From: an uncultured Eubacteriales bacterium
GTDB taxonomy: Bacteria > Bacillota > Clostridia > TANB77 > CAG-508
Reading direction: 5' to 3'
Assembly (NCBI GenBank): GCA_949287075.1
Contig: CASEEU010000086.1
Span: 204-64,203, forward strand
DNA: 64,000 bases
This document shows positions 54,939 to 62,633 of this stretch, one piece after another. A program made the position numbers and the translations under genes. The notes below the pieces were generated by a model. That model saw only the letters and a program-made list of their open reading frames with translations, did no database searches and was not told the origin of the DNA. Within the stretch, counting starts at the first letter, position 1; the number at the start of each line of letters is the position of its first letter.

Positions 54939-55913
54939 ATGTGTACTTGTGTAACATTCAAAACAAAAGATTATTATTTTGGAAGGAATTTAGATTTAGA
55001 AGTTACTTTTGGAGAAAAAGTAGTCATAACACCTAGAAATTATGAGTTTACTTTAAGAAATCATACTAAAATGAAAACAAAATATGCCATGATAGGAATG
55101 GGAACAGTTGTAGATGATTATCCATTATATGCAGATAGCGGAAATGAAAAAGGATTATGTATGGCAGGATTATATTTTCCAGGAAATGCTGTTTATTTTG
55201 AAGAAAAAGAAAATGCTATAAATATTGCTTCATTTGAATTAATTCCATGGTGTTTAGGAAATTTTTCAAGTATAGCAGAATTAAGAGAAGTGTTAAATAA
55301 GATAAATATAACCAATCAAACATTTCAGAAAAATATGCCAGTTGTGGATTTACATTGGATAATTAGTGATGAAAAAGAATGTATAGTGTTAGAACAAACG
55401 AAAAATGGATTACAAATATATGAAAATCCCTATGGTGTTTTAACCAATAATCCACCTTTTTGTTATCATCAAATGAATATCAATAATTATATAAATATAT
55501 CAGCTAAATTTCCAACCAATACGTTTTCAGAAGAGCTTTCCTTAAAACCATATGGACAAGGAATGGGAATGATAGGTTTGCCAGGAGAGGTTACACCAAC
55601 TGCTAGATTTGTCAGAGCAGCATTTTATAAATTCAACTCTATCACAGATGAAGATGAAGAAAGTTCAATTTCTCAATTTTTTCATATCTTAGATTCTGTA
55701 TCAATGATAAAAGGAAGTGTTATTACAAAAGAAAATCACTATGATATGACAACCTATTCTTCTTGTATAAATGCAAGTAAAGGTATATATTATTTTAAAA
55801 CTTACTATAATAATCAAATTAATGCAGTTTTGTTAAATGAAGAAAATAAAAATAGAGATACATTGGAAATATATGAATTACCTCAAAAACAACATATACA
55901 ATATATGAATTAA
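54939..55913 (+). CDS. Choloylglycine hydrolase family protein (bile salt hydrolase / penicillin V acylase type Ntn hydrolase)
   Basis: MCTCVTFKT..YFGRNLD gives the Cys2 nucleophile. 324 aa. It has NNPPF and the typical length. Confidence 0.85.
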   Translation: MCTCVTFKTKDYYFGRNLDLEVTFGEKVVITPRNYEFTLRNHTKMKTKYAMIGMGTVVDDYPLYADSGNEKGLCMAGLYFPGNAVYFEEKENAINIASFELIPWCLGNFSSIAELREVLNKINITNQTFQKNMPVVDLHWIISDEKECIVLEQTKNGLQIYENPYGVLTNNPPFCYHQMNINNYINISAKFPTNTFSEELSLKPYGQGMGMIGLPGEVTPTARFVRAAFYKFNSITDEDEESSISQFFHILDSVSMIKGSVITKENHYDMTTYSSCINASKGIYYFKTYYNNQINAVLLNEENKNRDTLEIYELPQKQHIQYMN

Positions 55914-55942: not shown

Positions 55943-56968
55943 ATGAAAAATATTAAAGACTATAGTTTAGAAGAATTAAAAGAAGAACTAAAAGAAATCG
56001 GAGAAAAGCCATTTCGAGCAGAACAAATATATAAATGGCTTTATGAAGCAAGAGTTTCTGATTTTGATGAAATGACCAATTTATCATTAGAATTAAGAGA
56101 AAAATTAAAACAAATCTATGAGATAAAAGAATTTAAGATATTAAAAAAACAAGTGGCATCAGATGGAACAAGAAAATACTTATTTGATGTCTTAGACGGA
56201 AATGCCATTGAGACTGTACTAATGGAATATCATCATGGATTTAGTATTTGTGTATCTTCGCAAATTGGTTGTAAAATGGGATGTAAATTTTGTGCATCAA
56301 CAGGAATTCCATTTGCAAGAAATTTAAGCTCAGGAGAAATTATTGAACAAATTATGGCAGTAGAAAGAGATGCCGATGTTAGAATTTCAAATATTGTATT
56401 TATGGGAATAGGAGAACCATTAGATAATTATGATAATGTCGTAAAAGCAATTCGAATTATCAACCATCCTAAGGGATTAAATATAGGAGCAAGACATATT
56501 AGTATATCTACAAGTGGTTTAGTACCAAAAATATATCAACTGGCAGAAGAAAACATACAATGTACATTATCGATTTCTTTACATGCAACAACAAATGAGC
56601 AAAGAAGTAAAATGATGCCTGTAAACAATATATACCATATAGAAGAACTATTACAAGCCTGCAAGGATTATATCGAAAAAACACATAGAAGAATCTCATT
56701 TGAGTATGCATTAGCAAAAGAAAATAATGACAATCTAGAAGATGCCAAACGATTAGTGAAATTGTTAAAAGGAATGCTTTGTCATGTGAATCTAATTCCA
56801 ATCAACAAAATAGAAAATGGAGCATATACAAAAAGCTCAAATGAAAATATTATGAAGTTTAGAGATTATTTAAATGACCATGGGATTGTGGCAACCATTA
56901 GAAGAGAATTAGGTTCAGACATTGATGCAGCATGTGGACAATTAAGAAGAAAAAATTTAAAACGATGA
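55943..56968 (+). CDS. rlmN: Radical-SAM 23S rRNA/tRNA adenine-C2 methyltransferase RlmN
   Basis: FRAEQIYKWLY, DGTRKYLF, IETVLM, CVSSQIGCKMGCKFCAS, GIGEPL, and DIDAACGQL. Confidence 0.8.
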   Translation: MKNIKDYSLEELKEELKEIGEKPFRAEQIYKWLYEARVSDFDEMTNLSLELREKLKQIYEIKEFKILKKQVASDGTRKYLFDVLDGNAIETVLMEYHHGFSICVSSQIGCKMGCKFCASTGIPFARNLSSGEIIEQIMAVERDADVRISNIVFMGIGEPLDNYDNVVKAIRIINHPKGLNIGARHISISTSGLVPKIYQLAEENIQCTLSISLHATTNEQRSKMMPVNNIYHIEELLQACKDYIEKTHRRISFEYALAKENNDNLEDAKRLVKLLKGMLCHVNLIPINKIENGAYTKSSNENIMKFRDYLNDHGIVATIRRELGSDIDAACGQLRRKNLKR

Positions 56969-57068
56969 CTTTGGGGACGGAGCAAAAAATCATCATTTAA
57001 TCTATAAAAGTTTTATAAAAATCTTTATAGAATGATGATTTTTTGCTCCGTCCCCAAAGTCATCGTTT
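56960..57068. repeat. 109-bp near-perfect palindrome; the 38-bp perfect arms include the stop codons of both convergent genes
   Basis: aaacgatgactttggggacggagcaaaaaatcatcatt (56960..56997) is the exact reverse complement of 57031..57068. The 33-nt centre is itself partly palindromic. Both genes end ...K R stop, encoded by aaacgatga. Confidence 0.9.
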
Positions 57069-59351
57069 CAGAATTTCAAGTAAACTTTCAATATCTTTTT
57101 TACAATTCATCATTTCATAATCTTTAACAGCTTTTTGACAAAACTCTTGTGCTTTTTCAAAGTCATTTATATAGACAGAATATATGGTTTGTAATCGATA
57201 ATACAAAGCTTCATTTCGAATATCATCTAAATCATTGTCTTTTAGAAAATTTTCGCAAGCTTTTAATTCTGAATCAGCTTTTTCCAAAAGATTAGTATTT
57301 TTGGTAGTTGCATAATTTTCTAATAGTAAAGAAATTAATAAAAGGCGATAATCAGCTTGACCACGAGTGAAGTTGGCAAGCTTTGCTTCTTCTAATCGCT
57401 GAATTAACATTTCGTATTTTAAATCAAAAGTATTTTCAATTTTTAGATAACATCTGGTAATCCACAAATCTGTTACCAATTTTCTGTATTCGTTAATATA
57501 AGGAAAATAGTTTGCTTTGATATTCATCCATATATCATAGCTTTCTTTATAATCCTTTAAACAGTTACAAGTATACAAAGCTTTTACATGATAAAACAAG
57601 CAAACAATACGTTTTTCTAAAGAATCTTTTTCTTTGTCAACAATTTTTGAGGCAATAGCTAAATATTTCTCAGCTTCTTCTTGATTTTGTGATTTAGACA
57701 TAATATTAATATAATCACATAAAGCTTCTAATTCTTCATTTTTATCTTGAATTTCATTTGCCATTTTCGCTCTTTTTAAATGAGGAGAATCTTCTCCTTT
57801 TTCCCACATACCTCTAACATAAATGTAGTATTTTAAATTTCTAATTATCGTAATATATTCTTTATATAATTTGTTTTCTTCTAGCATATTTAAAACTTGC
57901 TTTGTAATGTTCCATTCATCTAATTCATCAAATAATTTTAATTTAGAAATATCATTATAACATTCACCAACATAGGCAGATTTATCTATATAAAATTTTG
58001 CTAATTGTTTCAAAAATGTTTCTTTATCAAAATCTTCATCAGAAGCATTTACTAAGACAAGTGTTTTGATTAAATTGTGCATATCTAATCTAGGATTGTT
58101 TTGAATAATTGGGATTAATAAATCATTTGTATAACATTCTGTAATCGCTTCTTGCCAGTCAGTTGATAATATATCTAAATGTAATATGTAAGAAACGAGT
58201 TCAATTGAGATGGTATATTTGAAATTTGCACAAATAATGACGATTTTTTTAGCGATTGGACTTAATTCTTCCCATATATCATGAATGATTTTTTCTGACA
58301 TGAGTTTATAATCTTCATTTGTTTTTGTATATTTAGAAATGGCATTTTCCAAAGAGATTCCAAGTTTATTGGCATTCACAATTTTTTTCATTAAATAGAT
58401 AGAGGCAAATGGAATGCCACCAGTAATGGAATATAATGTGTCAACTAGTGAAGAGTGCATATCCATAATTTTTTTAAAATCTTCAGTTGTATAAAGCATA
58501 GCTTCTAGCTCTTCTTTAGAAATAAAGTCATTAATACAAAAACTAGAACAATAAGTATCTAATGCATTCTCATATTGATGATAAGGGGTAGAAGTAATCA
58601 TTACGATTTTTGAAAATTTAGAAAAATTCTTTATACATGTAATGGTTTCATCTTGGATAATGTCATCATCAAAATCGAATATAAGGATAGACTTACTATT
58701 TTTTATAAACTCAAGACAAGCATCTTGTTTTTCTTCAGGTTTGATTTCTGCTTTATTTTCTAAATTGAAAAGCAAAATGGTATCTAAAATCGTAGATAGC
58801 TGATGTTCCTTTTTTAGATTGATCCAAATCATATTTTCAAATTTGTTTTTTAAGCTCAAATCATACATATATGCCATAACAGATTTTGATTTTCCACCTA
58901 ATTTATATCCATAAATATAAGCAATATTAATAGGATGATTGATAAAATCATCTAAAAATGAAGTGAGTTTTTGAGATCGAATAATTTTGCTTAAGTCTTG
59001 AGGAATTAAATTATTTTTTGTTTGGATAGTTGTATCCTGAAAAACAACTGTATTGGTAGCAGATAAATAATTTTTAGCAAATGCATCAATCTTAAAATCA
59101 TCCACTTGTACTAATTTTGCATATTCTAGAATTCCTTGAAGAAAACTAGGAATGTCTTTGGGAATACTACCAGTTAAGAATTTTCGGATACTCACTTCTG
59201 CATAATGTGTATAATCTGCAATTCTTGTATAGATATATGTTTTACTAGGCAATTCTCCTTTTATATTATGTTTTTTTATAGATAGTTTCATTTCATTAAT
59301 AAAATCAGATAATAATTTTGCTCTATTTGTTTTTAAGATATCTTGTTCCAT
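57060..59351 (-). CDS. STAND-class regulator-like protein: XRE-like HTH + NB-ARC NTPase + TPR-like repeats
   Basis: The HTH-like segment is IADYTHYAEVSIRKFLTGSIPKD. Walker A is GYKLGGKSKS and Walker B is ILIFDFDDD. KIVMITSTP follows, and the GxP motif is TGGIPFA. The C-terminal ~350 aa are helical repeats. GGAGG lies 5 nt before the ATG at 59351, and an extended -10 is upstream. Confidence 0.7.
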   Translation of the reverse strand: MEQDILKTNRAKLLSDFINEMKLSIKKHNIKGELPSKTYIYTRIADYTHYAEVSIRKFLTGSIPKDIPSFLQGILEYAKLVQVDDFKIDAFAKNYLSATNTVVFQDTTIQTKNNLIPQDLSKIIRSQKLTSFLDDFINHPINIAYIYGYKLGGKSKSVMAYMYDLSLKNKFENMIWINLKKEHQLSTILDTILLFNLENKAEIKPEEKQDACLEFIKNSKSILIFDFDDDIIQDETITCIKNFSKFSKIVMITSTPYHQYENALDTYCSSFCINDFISKEELEAMLYTTEDFKKIMDMHSSLVDTLYSITGGIPFASIYLMKKIVNANKLGISLENAISKYTKTNEDYKLMSEKIIHDIWEELSPIAKKIVIICANFKYTISIELVSYILHLDILSTDWQEAITECYTNDLLIPIIQNNPRLDMHNLIKTLVLVNASDEDFDKETFLKQLAKFYIDKSAYVGECYNDISKLKLFDELDEWNITKQVLNMLEENKLYKEYITIIRNLKYYIYVRGMWEKGEDSPHLKRAKMANEIQDKNEELEALCDYINIMSKSQNQEEAEKYLAIASKIVDKEKDSLEKRIVCLFYHVKALYTCNCLKDYKESYDIWMNIKANYFPYINEYRKLVTDLWITRCYLKIENTFDLKYEMLIQRLEEAKLANFTRGQADYRLLLISLLLENYATTKNTNLLEKADSELKACENFLKDNDLDDIRNEALYYRLQTIYSVYINDFEKAQEFCQKAVKDYEMMNCKKDIESLLEILKR

Positions 59352-59445
59352 ATGTTCCTCCATCAATAACAAAATCTATCTTTATTATACCATTATGTTA
59401 TATAAAAGTACAAGGATAGAGGGTAATATCTCCATAAAGAAAATA

Positions 59446-59472
59446 AAAATTGATAATTTTTTTATCAATTTT
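59446..59472. promoter_or_regulatory. Perfect 11-bp inverted repeat in the divergent control region (candidate operator)
   Basis: aaaattgataa-ttttt-ttatcaatttt, lying between the divergent STAND gene and the RtcB-like operon. Confidence 0.4.
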
Positions 59473-59631
59473 AAAAAACTGTATTTTGAAAAGTTTAATA
59501 ATTGAGATTAACATAAAATAAAATAGGCATATATTGAGCAGGAAACTAAATGCTTGAAAATGCGAAACTTGAATTCTTTAGTAAAGGATTTGTAACCAAA
59601 AACATTTAATGTAAAAAAAGGAGGAGACAAT

Positions 59632-60705
59632 ATGATTTATAATTTGACATTAAATGATAGAACACAGAAGAAAGTGCTTCGGGAGTTAGAAACAACAGAA
59701 AAGTTGATTTCGAAAGTTGCGACAAAACTTTCATCAACACAGAAAACTTGTGATATTTATGCAATGTCTGATTTAGGGATTGCACATAATGTTACAAGAA
59801 TGAGAGGTGGTTTCTTTACAGGAGCTGCATATGTCTGGGAACAACCAGATACTCCATTCATTCCTGTAGATACTACAATCAATGTATGTGGCACAGCTTT
59901 GTATAAAATAAATTCTGATATGAATATAACAGAATTTAGAAAGAGATGTGAGAAAGCTTTAGCAGATACATCGAAGTATGACTGGAATTTTACCAATGGT
60001 AACCATTTTATTTCTTTATGTTATTCGGAAAATAACATGGGAATGCAGGAAGGTTACTATATGCTTGTCCATGCTTCAGCATGCGAATACAAAGAAGAGT
60101 TATATCCAGTTATAGGAAACTGGTACTATAATAGTATTGTAACAGAAAGATTGGGAGAGTACCAGTATCTGAGATTTATTAAAGGAGAGAAAGTAGTAAG
60201 ATTTTATCAAATAGCAAAAATGCTGGAATCCTTTAATAGAGAAAGAAATTATAATTTTTGCAAGCAAGTTTTATCAGAAAAAATGGAAAATGAAATCTTG
60301 AATGTAGCTCATTATGGAATGCCAAGTATATATGAAGTATTGATTGGTGTTCAGAAAACTGCAGGACTTGCAACGTTATTAACAAGTCTAGGAAAAAATG
60401 TGTATATAGTGAAGAAAAAAGAAAAATCTGAAAATCATTATATTCCACATGGTTTTGGCTTAGAATTACCAGAAAATAGTGATTTTGCCTATTGCGAAAA
60501 TGGTATACAAATAGGTAAAAAGGAATTTTTTTCTGGTAGTATTACAATTGGAGAAGATGCGATTAACCGGCATGGATTTCCTGAAAAGGATAACGAGCTG
60601 AGAAATTATGCTAGAAAAATAGCAAAAATCAATGAATTAGAGATTTGTGCAGAATTGAAACAGATTTGCAGTTTTTCTACAAAGGGTTTTAAAATATGGA
60701 GGTAA
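59632..60705 (+). CDS. Divergent RtcB-like protein (putative RNA 3'-phosphate ligase superfamily member)
   Basis: Its motifs run collinear with my memory of E. coli RtcB: YAMSDLG / VMPDVHLG; PVDTTINVCG / GVDIGCGM; TNGNHFISL / GTGNHFIEI; MLVHASACEY / MLHSGSRGIG; NVAHYG / NCHHNY; SLGKNVYIVKK / SMGAKSFIVRG; IPHGFG / CSHGAGR; and a C-terminal ..KG. RBS AAAGGAGGAG. Confidence 0.45.
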   Translation: MIYNLTLNDRTQKKVLRELETTEKLISKVATKLSSTQKTCDIYAMSDLGIAHNVTRMRGGFFTGAAYVWEQPDTPFIPVDTTINVCGTALYKINSDMNITEFRKRCEKALADTSKYDWNFTNGNHFISLCYSENNMGMQEGYYMLVHASACEYKEELYPVIGNWYYNSIVTERLGEYQYLRFIKGEKVVRFYQIAKMLESFNRERNYNFCKQVLSEKMENEILNVAHYGMPSIYEVLIGVQKTAGLATLLTSLGKNVYIVKKKEKSENHYIPHGFGLELPENSDFAYCENGIQIGKKEFFSGSITIGEDAINRHGFPEKDNELRNYARKIAKINELEICAELKQICSFSTKGFKIWR

Positions 60706-60709
60706 GTGT

Positions 60710-61258
60710 ATGGTGCTATATGTAACAAGACACGGTGAAACAGCCTGGAACTTGTATGGAAAAGTACAAGGAAAAGCAGATATTTTGCTTAATAGTAAAG
60801 GAATAGAACAGGCAAAAGAAACAATGGAAAAGCTAAAAGAAGAAAACATTGATTTCATTATCTGTTCTCCTTTAAAAAGAGCAAGACAGACGGCTGAGAT
60901 TATTAACGCAGAGAAAAACATTCCCATTATCTTTGATGAAAGAATTTCTGAAAGAGATTTTGGAGAAATGGAAGGAATGTCTAAAGATGATTTTGATTTT
61001 CAGGGATTTTGGAATTACGAGAAAAATGTAACTTATGAAAAAGCTGAAAATATCAGAGTTTTCTTTAATAGAATATTTTTATTTTTAGATGAGATAAAAA
61101 AGAAATATAAAGATAAGAATATTTTATTTGTAACTCATGGAGGCGTTAGTATAGCCATTAACTGCTATTTCAATGGAATACCTGAAAGTGGAGCATGTTT
61201 ACCACTATGTATCAAAAACTGTGAGGTAAAAAGTTTTCATTTTCAAATAACATATTAG
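60710..61258 (+). CDS. Histidine phosphatase superfamily protein (PGAM-like), canonical active site
   Basis: YVTRHGETAWN, SPLKRARQTA, ERDFGEMEG and VTHGG. GGAGG lies 7 nt upstream, inside the 3' end of the preceding gene. Confidence 0.8.
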   Translation: MVLYVTRHGETAWNLYGKVQGKADILLNSKGIEQAKETMEKLKEENIDFIICSPLKRARQTAEIINAEKNIPIIFDERISERDFGEMEGMSKDDFDFQGFWNYEKNVTYEKAENIRVFFNRIFLFLDEIKKKYKDKNILFVTHGGVSIAINCYFNGIPESGACLPLCIKNCEVKSFHFQITY

Positions 61259-61268
61259 GAGAGTGCAT

Positions 61269-61799
61269 ATGAAACAAATCATTTTTTTGCGACATGCAAA
61301 GACTGAAATGAATGAAAAATGTCGGTTTTGTGGCATAATAGATACAGGTATCACAGAAGAGGGAAGAAGACAGGCAGAAAAAATGCAAGAAACATTTAAA
61401 GAATATCATTTTGATGCAATGTATTGTTCACCTCTTAAAAGAACAAAACAGACTTTAGAGGCTATTTTCCAAAATCGGGAATTCATTGAAGAGGATGGAT
61501 TTATAGAAATCAGTCTTGGAGATTGGGAAGGATTGAAAAAGGAGACTATTAGTCAGAAACTTCGAAAAGCCTTTCAGCGAGGAGAGTATGCACCACCTCA
61601 TGGTGAAAAGCATGAAGACATAGAAGCAAGAGTAAAAGAAGCAATTGAAAGAATCTTTGCAACTTATCCGGACGGTTCTGTAATTCTGGTATGTACAAGT
61701 AACGGAATTATGCGAACAATTAAGAGAATCTATGGTATCAAAACTGAAAAAATGATGTCAGGCAACTTAGAATTTTTTTCTTTGAAGAGAGAAGCGTGA
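61269..61799 (+). CDS. Histidine phosphatase superfamily paralog with a degenerate second catalytic His
   Basis: IFLRHAKTEMN, SPLKRTKQT and ISLGDWEG are present. The position of the (T/S)HGG motif reads CTSNG. AGGAGAG lies upstream of the ATG at 61269. Confidence 0.7.
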   Translation: MKQIIFLRHAKTEMNEKCRFCGIIDTGITEEGRRQAEKMQETFKEYHFDAMYCSPLKRTKQTLEAIFQNREFIEEDGFIEISLGDWEGLKKETISQKLRKAFQRGEYAPPHGEKHEDIEARVKEAIERIFATYPDGSVILVCTSNGIMRTIKRIYGIKTEKMMSGNLEFFSLKREA

Positions 61800-61810
61800 A
61801 AAAATATGAA

Positions 61811-61849
61811 AATAGAGTCTAGAAAGAATGTTTTTGGACTCTATTTTTA
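61811..61849 (+). terminator. Intrinsic terminator closing the RtcB-like/phosphatase operon
   Basis: aatagagtc / gactctatt, a 9-bp stem with a 17-nt loop, followed by ttttt. Confidence 0.6.
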
Positions 61850-61928
61850 TGAGTGAAATATTGTTCAATAAGGAAAAATTTACAAAATACTAAATGTATG
61901 GTATAATTAAATATGTGGAAGTGATGCT

Positions 61929-62633
61929 ATGAATAAAAAAGATATAAAAGCTATTTTGATGTCAATGAGAACAAGTGAAAATGATGCAATGATAAATAAA
62001 CTATTAGGAAAAATAGATATGATAGATGATATAGTATTACAAAATGCAGTTGAGCAAGTTGGAGGGACAAAAGAGGATGTAAGAGCATTTTGGGAAAAGA
62101 AAATATCAGGAAAACGATATGACAAAACAGAAAAACATATACCTATAAATGATATGTTTTTCTATGGAATATCTGAAAATAATATTCATCTTCATTTGCC
62201 TGTGGATTTACATCAAATGATTTCCCAAAAAGGAATTTCTAGAACAATTGATATAGTTAATTTATATCTATTAGATGCGATAGATAGACTAAAAGCTTTA
62301 AAGGACGAGGGCTACTACAAATTTCAAGGAAAAACTGGTATATATATGATTTCTCCTTTGTTAGCAGGAAGAGAAAGAAAATTTTTAGAAAATTTAGATT
62401 TTAGTACTAGAATTTACAAGAAAAAAGAGTTAAACAATGAAGAATTTTTAAAAGAAAATATCGAGGCTAAGTTAGCCACAGATGTTTTTGGAAAAGGAAA
62501 ACAAGTGGGAGTAGCAAGTATAAAATTTGATACAATATCTTCAGAAGAATGGCAAGAGAAAAAACAACAAGTAATAAAAGATTTGGAAAGCAAAGGAATT
62601 ACGTTAAATGAGAAGAAAAGTGTAGAAAAATAA
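61929..62633 (+). CDS. Hypothetical 234-aa protein, no recognisable motif
   Basis: It has its own extended -10 promoter (tggtataat at about 61900) and the RBS GGAAGTGA. Its composition is like the host background. Confidence 0.5.
   Translation: MNKKDIKAILMSMRTSENDAMINKLLGKIDMIDDIVLQNAVEQVGGTKEDVRAFWEKKISGKRYDKTEKHIPINDMFFYGISENNIHLHLPVDLHQMISQKGISRTIDIVNLYLLDAIDRLKALKDEGYYKFQGKTGIYMISPLLAGRERKFLENLDFSTRIYKKKELNNEEFLKENIEAKLATDVFGKGKQVGVASIKFDTISSEEWQEKKQQVIKDLESKGITLNEKKSVEK

Follow-up and report, generated by a model that had tools for sequence, protein, structure and literature searches.

A family of RtcB-like proteins paired with histidine phosphatases in gut Firmicutes, with a STAND protein as predicted regulator

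Introduction

To our knowledge, no enzyme family other than RtcB joins 3'-phosphate to 5'-OH ends, and what RtcB does in bacteria is still debated. RtcB (PF01139) is known from the E. coli rtcBA-rtcR locus and from archaeal and human RTCB, and its partners are RtcA, archease, or PrfH. The rtcBA operon is inducible and has a dedicated, divergently transcribed, signal-sensing activator, the sigma-54/CARF protein RtcR. Here, we describe a locus in a 64-kb stretch of DNA from an uncultured Eubacteriales bacterium (GenBank assembly GCA_949287075.1, contig CASEEU010000086.1; the whole stretch is referred to below as the window). At this locus, a 357-amino-acid (aa) RtcB-like protein (RL) is encoded together with two histidine phosphatases (HP1 and HP2) and divergently from a 763-aa STAND protein.

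RtcB and RL have the same fold, and RtcB is the sole significant structural match to RL. The active-site motifs occur in the same order in both proteins, and putative counterparts of RtcB Cys98, His203, His234, His329, Asn202, and His404 are conserved in RL. The operon that we propose for RL would also resemble rtcBA in being inducible through a dedicated, divergently transcribed regulator. In contrast, identity between RL and RtcB is only ∼10%, RL is ∼120 residues shorter, and it matches neither PF01139 nor any NCBIfam model. Its partner is a histidine phosphatase, and its regulator is an HTH-NB-ARC-TPR protein or a LysR protein instead of RtcR. No match to RtcA, Sigma54_activat, or CARF was found with Pfam and NCBIfam among the neighbors of RL in the window.

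Regulators such as MalT, GutR, AfsR, and PH0952 combine a nucleotide-binding oligomerization domain (NOD) that acts as a switch with a helical-repeat (TPR) sensor and a terminal DNA-binding domain, which is the architecture that we propose for the STAND protein of the window. GutR adjoins and diverges from the operon that it controls (gutB), as the STAND gene does here. MalT and GutR are switched on first by inducer and then by ATP, and their multimerization activates transcription (PMC10936776). PH0952 (PDB 6mfv) is predicted to be a transcription factor and has an N-terminal DNA-binding effector, a NOD, and a TPR sensor (PMC6468293). It is the best structural match to the STAND protein and has the same domain order from N to C terminus. 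The STAND protein differs from these regulators in that its N terminus belongs to no recognized helix-turn-helix (HTH) family and in that it goes with a single operator and a single target operon.

The RNA healing-and-sealing systems bacterial Pnkp/Hen1 and T4 Pnk with Rnl1 combine a phosphoesterase that processes ends with an enzyme of the ligase type, which the pairing of RL with a phosphatase resembles. The Pnkp layout, a metallophosphoesterase with a ligase, is echoed by Metallophos-RL fusions among longer relatives of RL (long forms). However, Pnkp/Hen1 and the T4 ligases are ATP dependent, join 5'-phosphate to 3'-OH ends, and need the 3'-phosphate to be removed, whereas an RtcB-type enzyme needs the 3'-phosphate. 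Moreover, RL is accompanied by a histidine (PGAM-like) phosphatase, and the block encodes neither a kinase nor Hen1. Modular anti-phage proteins (the ThsB-like TIR protein of Thoeris, CBASS-type effectors, and Avs) also share features with relatives of RL, which carry TIR or effector-like Metallophos heads and, once, a STAND fusion; in contrast, the RL of the window is headless. We found no description of a module combining an RtcB-like protein, a histidine phosphatase, and a STAND protein in family libraries or the searchable literature, in which coverage of subscription journals is thin. This agrees with a first-pass annotation of this DNA, made from the sequence without database searches, which knew of none.

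Results

RL is a predicted enzyme of the RtcB superfamily

RL matched no model in Pfam or NCBIfam (E up to 0.1 for both) or in PADLOC, and its sole signal in PHROGs was a faint match to "tRNA splicing ligase" (E = 0.14) over the segment NGNHF. Among 5.8 billion proteins we found 155 relatives, none of which carried a Pfam domain or a name. An AlphaFold2 (AF2) model of RL built on 32 homologs was confident (predicted local distance difference test [pLDDT], 93; predicted template modeling score [pTM], 0.91). When this model was compared with the PDB using Foldseek, the top five matches, with E values of 2e-7 to 8e-6, a probability of 1.0, and a template modeling (TM) score of ∼0.49 relative to the query, were all RtcB structures from human or Pyrococcus horikoshii. 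The sixth match dropped sharply to E = 0.07. A comparison with viral models gave one match, a compact 370-aa phage RtcB (E = 5e-10; TM score, 0.58). The first-pass annotation had called this protein RtcB-like, a name that its fold bears out against both PDB and phage RtcB and that sequence profiles do not.

Neither phmmer nor an hmmsearch of PDB sequences with a hidden Markov model of the RL family found RtcB, and hhalign comparisons of RL with E. coli RtcB alone or with a four-sequence RtcB alignment were nonsignificant. The homology of RL and RtcB rests on the fold and on collinear motifs (in RL, D47, D80/T82/N84/C86, N124-H125-F126, H147, H227, and H273-G-x-G). The hhalign alignment is weak yet collinear over the full protein, and the PHGxG segment at H273 is the sole part of it with local confidence. 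In this profile-profile alignment, with its probability of 9%, RL residues D47, N84, C86, N124-H125-F126, H147, H227, and H273 align with P. horikoshii RtcB residues D65, N97, C98, N202-H203-F204, H234, H329, and H404, respectively.

In RtcB, Cys98, His234, and His329 are the ligands of Mn1, and Asp95, Cys98, and His203 are those of Mn2; Asn202 positions the 5'-OH nucleophile, and His404, in the motif HGAGR, accepts GMP (PMC8051266). Across 199 diverse members of the RL family, N124, H125, F126, H147, H227, H273, G274, and G276 were invariant (199/199), and D47, R56, D80, N84, and R313 were nearly so. Position 86 was Cys in 184 of the 199 members and Asp in the other 15, a swap that would still suit a metal ligand. 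We concluded that RL is a predicted active enzyme of the RtcB superfamily that lies outside the RtcB family as now defined, and its substrate may differ from that of RtcB. Isoelectric point, considered as a way to discriminate between RNA and small-molecule substrates, was uninformative.

RL is paired with a histidine phosphatase across two branches

We scanned one genome per species across ∼185,000 species and kept 80 loci for neighborhood analysis. RL was present in 99 of these species, all of them represented by metagenome-assembled genomes (MAGs) of uncultured gut Clostridia or Bacilli. A histidine phosphatase gene lay immediately downstream of RL in 62 of the 77 evaluable species loci by tblastn and in 53 of 72 by clustering of open reading frames (ORFs). 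The succession of an opposite-strand 760-aa NB-ARC-like protein, RL, and His_Phos_1 was kept even where identity had fallen to 43% and the chromosomal surroundings were unrelated, with the cassette lying between comEC and a gene for a peptidase M29. ORF clustering of the species loci revealed no transporter or other metabolic gene consistently linked to RL. Several loci had no phosphatase near RL. In one further locus, from a related genome (L026, 1538-4987), both the STAND and the phosphatase gene are missing and RL is the only gene that separates rlmN from spoIVA, so that the island is reduced or decaying there.

An exhaustive profile search extended the RL family to 331 cluster representatives at 50% identity. 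Many of these relatives are long forms of 760 to 1,060 aa with a variable head, a conserved unannotated middle domain of ∼250 aa, and a C-terminal RL domain. Among 38 long forms, the heads included TIR (9 to 11), calcineurin-like phosphoesterase (3), DUF4062 (1), and a STAND NTPase (1). Long-form heads matched the PADLOC models TIR-TM, "Effector," and PDC-S60/S66, with the phosphoesterase heads matching "Effector" and PDC-S60. No Pfam match was found for the middle domain or the unannotated heads, for which PADLOC gave only a faint CARF-like match (E = 0.034).

A metagenome scan for long forms yielded 80 loci, mostly from human gut and forming 17 clusters at 70% identity (proteins P0286-P0377; loci L092-L171). 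Of the 72 loci that could be evaluated, 71 had a histidine phosphatase gene as the next co-directional gene after RL, and the stop codon of RL and the start codon of the phosphatase usually overlapped. Representative heads at these loci, examples of which are L095 (2957-6043) and L107 (3977-6439), were Metallophos (proteins of ∼1,028 aa), TIR (∼820 aa), and unannotated. Adjacency of RL and a phosphatase thus recurs in >130 loci from two branches and in unrelated contexts. The two genes therefore travel together almost obligately in the superfamily as a whole. RL with one histidine phosphatase is the conserved core, and the STAND gene is an optional, replaceable partner. The neighborhood check proposed in the first-pass annotation therefore came out in favor of a genuine association (62/77 and 71/72 loci), and the "twin" phosphatases that it took as the defining unit turned out to be a local variant, since the tandem HP1-HP2 arrangement is confined to the clade of the window.

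In one long-form relative (P0258; 1,062 aa), a single polypeptide starts with a STAND NTPase, continues with a helical region, and ends in an RL domain; it has no HTH. A specific relationship between its STAND part and the STAND protein of the window was not supported (best BLASTP E = 0.008). Another long form was found on a 7.2-kb fecal contig deposited as "Bacteriophage sp." (L091; MT837290), which carries a long-form RL-phosphatase pair (RL identity, 30%) with relaxase-like and ParB-like genes and has no obvious virion genes among ORFs of at least 100 aa. It looks like a mobilizable element rather than a phage.

The two phosphatases belong to different subfamilies

Both phosphatases of the window match Pfam His_Phos_1 (PF00300; E = 7e-46 for HP1 and 5e-40 for HP2). 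HP1 has the full catalytic set (R7, H8, and G9 of the RHG motif; R57; E81; and H143 of the HG motif), in agreement with its first description as a canonical PGAM-type phosphatase. HP2 keeps the nucleophile (RHA), both Arg residues, and the Glu, and its second His is replaced by Ser. HP2 thus lacks only the second His, and the "degenerate paralog" of the first description is not a recent copy of HP1: the two are 25% identical and represent separate subfamilies, each of which also occurs alone beside RL in other genomes. A recent tandem duplication was rejected on the same grounds. HP2-type phosphatases of distant genomes (RHA/R/E/HN) retain the second His, and the His-to-Ser change is specific to the clade of the window, even in genomes in which HP2 is the sole phosphatase.

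Neither HP1 nor HP2 reached an NCBIfam equivalog cutoff (CobC, PspA, GpmB, and SixA). The best match of both was TIGR03162 cobC, at 120.5 and 102.3 bits against a cutoff of 162.9, and the other models were far below their cutoffs. At two loci (L083, 4697-6454, and L085, 3265-5022), the partner of RL is a 585-aa fusion of an HP1-like His_Phos_1 domain with a GDPD (glycerophosphodiester phosphodiesterase) domain. The C-terminal ∼170 aa of this fusion are unannotated, and an HIT-like motif there (HVHLYGR) could not be confirmed.

The STAND protein is most likely a transcription factor with a conserved candidate operator

In the AF2 model of the STAND protein (pLDDT, 85), five helices at the N terminus precede a NOD, after which paired-helix repeats extend over ∼320 residues. 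In Foldseek, the best match was 6mfv (the STAND-TPR protein PH0952; E = 2e-12); CED-4, the NB-ARC domains of plant NLRs, and Apaf-1 came next (probability, 1.0 for all), and the TPR-like domain matched the TPR sensor of 6mfv and the TPR domain of LGN. By sequence, the NB-ARC domain was below the Pfam threshold (20.4 versus 23.5 bits; E = 3.5e-4), and some homologs carry a precomputed PF00931 match. In 30 homologs with identities down to 42%, the NTPase residues G148, G153, K154, D226, and G312 were invariant, in line with conservation of the Walker A, Walker B, and GxP motifs in the family, as were E52 to L59 (EVSIRKFL), in the second helix of the predicted pair, and G61 in the N-terminal domain. 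The HTH assignment in this domain is putative because no Pfam HTH model matched it, and it falls into no recognizable HTH family. Of the HTH-NB-ARC-TPR architecture first read from the sequence, the NB-ARC and TPR-like parts are therefore upheld by fold, and the "XRE-like HTH" lacks the backing of a sequence family. The STAND family is small (111 clusters, all full length and at least 42% identical) and is confined to MAGs of gut Firmicutes.

The STAND gene lies divergently upstream of RL in ∼25 of the 80 species loci and, where the upstream sequence is long enough for a verdict, is present in ∼40% of loci. At 31 loci, a co-directional gene for a 292-aa LysR regulator (Pfam HTH_1 and LysR_substrate) lies upstream of RL instead. 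Since LysR takes the place of STAND, this upstream slot is a regulator slot.

The divergent control region of the window contains one copy of the palindrome AATTGATA-N7-TATCAATT, against 0.04 expected by chance in the window. This candidate operator occurred exactly once, and always upstream of RL, in 30 of the 30 STAND-bearing loci that were fetched, and in 0 of 60 loci without STAND. The 30 loci include some in unrelated contexts in which identity of the STAND protein is just 44 to 51%. The palindrome lies ∼40 nucleotides (nt) upstream of the candidate -35 element of the RL-phosphatase operon. The ∼100-nt 5' leader of this operon had no Rfam match, so no riboswitch or leader RNA was found.

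These observations place the STAND protein most likely among transcription factors of the MalT/GutR/PH0952 type. The co-occurrence with the operator and the replacement by LysR make a role in transcription much likelier than one as an effector-coupled immune sensor. The first-pass annotation had counted the STAND protein as a sensor and partner of the system. Its recurrence with the operator in 30 loci supports the partnership, which is nevertheless optional given the 31 loci with LysR. Its own conserved operator suggests that it behaves as a DNA-binding transcription factor and not as a stand-alone immune sensor.

The cassette is mobile and sporadically distributed

Several cassettes adjoin genes for Mob_Pre, RepA_N, serine recombinase, transposase, or relaxase. 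A search of PLSDB found RL on none of its sequenced plasmids. Exact look-ups of all five proteins of the block showed that no source has given any of them a name.

Layout and flanks of the locus

The features of the locus are listed in Table 1. The five ORFs, the 280-bp region between the divergent STAND and RL genes (59352-59631), the gaps of 4 nt between RL and HP1 and of 10 nt between HP1 and HP2, and the hairpin with T-run that closes the operon were all present as first annotated. The ORF of the STAND gene spans 57060-59372(-) from its first TTG; we placed the start at the ATG at 59351, which is preceded by a GGAGGA site and gives a protein of 763 aa, matching metagenome gene callers. The flanking genes are, as had been proposed, rlmN on the left (TIGR00048; E = 3e-135) and spoIVA on the right (TIGR02836; E = 2e-158). 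GC content does not distinguish the block from its surroundings. A consensus terminator scan did not pick up the hairpin after HP2.

TABLE 1 Features of the RL locus (positions in the window)
Feature	Position	Strand	Description
STAND regulator gene	57060..59351	-	763 aa; N-terminal helical (putative HTH) domain, NB-ARC/STAND NTPase, and TPR-like sensor
All-helical TPR-like sensor	57066..58025	-	∼residues 443-762; paired-helix repeats; pLDDT above 90
NOD/NB-ARC NTPase	58032..58973	-	∼residues 127-440; Walker A GYKLGGKS, Walker B LIFDFDDD, GxP TGGIPFA
Putative helix-turn-helix	59178..59243	-	Residues 37-58; predicted helices 37-48 and 52-58
Candidate STAND promoter	59440..59468	-	TTGATA-17-TATTTT; consensus scan; overlaps palindrome; putative function
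Palindromic candidate operator	59448..59470		AATTGATA-N7-TATCAATT; divergent control region
Candidate RL-phosphatase operon promoter	59508..59535	+	TTAACA-16-TATATT; consensus scan, 10/12 matches; putative function
RL gene	59632..60705	+	357 aa; diverged RtcB-fold enzyme (predicted)
HP1 gene	60710..61258	+	182 aa; canonical branch-1 histidine phosphatase, 4 nt after RL
HP2 gene	61269..61799 (alternative start 61263)	+	176 aa (178 aa); second histidine phosphatase
Intrinsic terminator	61805..61851	+	Closes operon after HP2; 21-bp stem, -22.7 kcal/mol, z -8.2, then UUUUUAU
Orphan promoter	61879-61907		TTTACA-17-TGnTATAAT; consensus scan; near consensus, extended -10
Orphan gene	61929..62633	+	234 aa

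The 234-aa protein at the end of the block, an orphan, had no family match in Pfam or NCBIfam. Its gene has a near-consensus promoter, as expected from its first description as separately promoted. The same description made it the last member of the block, and here conservation tells otherwise: the orphan was found in just 3 of the 80 species loci (L018, L019, and L021), all close relatives, and the slot before spoIVA holds unrelated genes of 433 or 336 aa in other relatives. We therefore rejected the orphan as a component of the system; its slot is a variable cargo position.

Two further features lie on the left side of the locus. A near-perfect hairpin of ∼110 nt (56952-57076; -73 kcal/mol; z, -15.5) spans the convergent gap between rlmN and the STAND gene and overlaps both stop codons. 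Both of its strands match Rfam models of miRNA precursors, as long hairpins generally do, and an arm of it recurs in a few related genomes, one of which (L023) has two separate copies. This suggests a small repeated palindromic element, which may double as a bidirectional terminator. Just upstream of rlmN is a gene for choloylglycine (bile salt) hydrolase (54939-55913; NF038245; E = 1e-132), which fits the gut origin of the genome.

Discussion

We propose, with roughly even confidence, that the locus is a mobile, signal-inducible operon in which RL and its histidine phosphatase or phosphatases process phosphate ends, with the STAND protein as a dedicated transcription factor. An inducer would bind the TPR sensor of the STAND protein, and exchange of ADP for ATP would open the NOD and allow the protein to multimerize. 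Its N-terminal HTH heads would then occupy AATTGATA-N7-TATCAATT, upstream of the -35 element of the operon and over the STAND promoter, and would presumably activate rather than repress, so that RL, HP1, and HP2 are switched on. RL, with a predicted two-metal center (C86, H125, H147, and H227) and a nucleophilic His273, would form an enzyme-nucleoside monophosphate intermediate and activate or join a phosphate-terminated substrate. The phosphatase would remove a phosphomonoester, either before RL acts, from its substrate, or afterward, from its product. RL and the phosphatase would act as a translationally coupled pair, of which the clade of the window carries a version with two phosphatases from different subfamilies. 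In this scheme, the fold of RL, the conserved residues, the pairing of the genes, and the co-occurrence of STAND and operator are observed, and DNA binding, activation, nucleotidyl-His chemistry, substrate, and biological role are predictions.

The likeliest substrates would be RNA or nucleotides with 2',3'-cyclic or 3'-phosphate ends that result from stress, toxin, or phage attack. Such ends are the most economical choice given the superfamily to which RL is assigned and the TIR, nuclease, and STAND fusions of its relatives. The function put forward in the first-pass annotation, inducible healing and sealing or modification of RNA ends, is thus plausible, although the substrate may also be something other than RNA. 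The sporadic distribution, the mobile-element neighbors, and the fusions of relatives to TIR, Metallophos, and STAND were counted in favor of a context of conflict or stress.

A number of observations weigh against this proposal. The role of the phosphatase is unexplained, since RtcB-type sealing needs a 3'-phosphate that a phosphatase would remove. The profile alignment of RL with RtcB is nonsignificant, and within this alignment of low statistical confidence, RtcB Asp95 pairs with RL Thr82, with the conserved Asp80 two residues away; Asp80 might stand in for Asp95. In RtcB, Arg238 binds the phosphates of the 5'-OH strand (PMC8051266). The equivalent in RL is position 151, in VHASAxE, which is variable across the family. 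There is thus no conserved counterpart of Arg238, and RNA may therefore not be the substrate. On the side of the regulators, the N terminus of the STAND protein matches no HTH model, and LysR and GutR/MalT-type regulators mostly sense small metabolites. The His_Phos_1-GDPD fusion likewise points toward small-molecule chemistry. Finally, a comparison of the five proteins of the window with PADLOC-DB v2 gave zero matches at E up to 1.

A related reading, to which we give a substantial though less than even chance, makes the RL-phosphatase pair the core of an unrecognized family of conflict systems (anti-phage, anti-toxin, or interbacterial) in gut Firmicutes. RtcB-type phosphate-end chemistry would be put to a new use, and could possibly make, rejoin, or destroy a signal or damage product derived from nucleotides or RNA. 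The output would be transcriptional induction in the short forms (through STAND-HTH or LysR) or the action of fused TIR or nuclease heads in the long forms.

We consider it unlikely that the locus is a small-molecule operon, in which RL would nucleotidylate or ligate a phosphorylated metabolite, the phosphatase would trim the product, much as CobC finishes the assembly of the cobamide loop, and the regulator would sense the metabolite. The metabolite could, for example, be a nucleotide with a cyclic phosphate, a compound of the glycerophosphodiester type, or a toxin or antibiotic that resembles a nucleotide. A small-molecule substrate stays a serious rival to RNA ends because of the loss of Arg238, the association with LysR and GutR/MalT-type STAND proteins, which are small-molecule-sensing classes, and the GDPD fusion in the phosphatase of two loci. 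It also suits this reading that the nearest NCBIfam models of the phosphatases are CobC and PspA (all below cutoff) and that the cassette resides on mobilizable elements, like accessory genes for catabolism or resistance. However, no transporter or metabolic gene is consistently linked to the pair, and the repeated fusions of RL to TIR, effector-like Metallophos, and STAND typify conflict systems and not catabolism. In addition, Asn124, which does not vary in the family, is the counterpart of the residue with which RtcB positions a nucleic acid's 5'-OH nucleophile (PMC8051266).

Two other models are less likely. In the first, which we regard as improbable, the locus is an NLR/Avs-like immune system in which the TPR domain of the STAND protein detects a phage or toxin protein and activates RL and the phosphatases by oligomerization, not through transcription. 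In favor of this model, a natural STAND-helical-RL fusion exists (P0258), TPR-STAND proteins include antiviral sensors (for example, EfAvs5, which was among the fold matches of the STAND protein), and long forms of RL bear TIR or nuclease-like heads. On the other hand, the candidate operator is conserved and strictly tied to the STAND gene, the putative N-terminal HTH is invariant, the genes are arranged divergently, and LysR and STAND are interchangeable. The best structural match, PH0952, is itself predicted to regulate transcription (PMC6468293), PADLOC gave no match, and the STAND part of the fusion is not specifically related to that of the window.

The second model, to which we give a similarly low probability, is a toxin/antidote pair with a logic like that of DarT-DarG. 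RL would modify an essential target, for example by capping or misjoining tRNA or rRNA ends, the phosphatase would reverse or preempt this, and the regulator would keep the pair silent until needed. In favor of this model are the nearly obligate coupling of the two genes, also in translation, with a start codon that overlaps the preceding stop codon, the mobile and sporadic distribution, and the variable effector-like heads on a constant RL-phosphatase core. However, RL persists at L026 with neither a phosphatase nor a STAND gene next to it, and several other loci also have no phosphatase near RL. Histidine phosphatases, moreover, hydrolyze phosphomonoesters and not the pyrophosphate cap that an RtcB-type enzyme would make. 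An accidental juxtaposition in the rlmN-spoIVA slot, which is variable, holds different extra genes in relatives, and carries the orphan in just 3 of 80 loci, has a negligible chance: recurrent synteny, with RL-phosphatase adjacency in >130 loci and the trio of STAND, operator, and RL in 30, rules it out for the core of RL, phosphatase, and regulator, and it holds only for the orphan.

The RL family and its pairing with a phosphatase are real and conserved and appear to be undescribed. What is new is an enzyme family, its obligate partner, and its regulators around a predicted RtcB-centered inducible operon. RL represents a sizeable sister family of RtcB that appears to keep the catalytic constellation and has no Pfam or NCBIfam model, and its pairing with a phosphatase is not predicted by the canonical RtcB mechanism. 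The family is concentrated in bacteria of the human and animal gut, on mobile elements, and is wired either to dedicated regulators, predicted to be ligand-sensing transcription factors, or to immune-type TIR or nuclease heads. The STAND protein with its operator offers a compact candidate model for studying NLR-type switches, and characterizing RL could reveal new chemistry at RNA or nucleotide ends or a stress or defense pathway of the gut microbiome.

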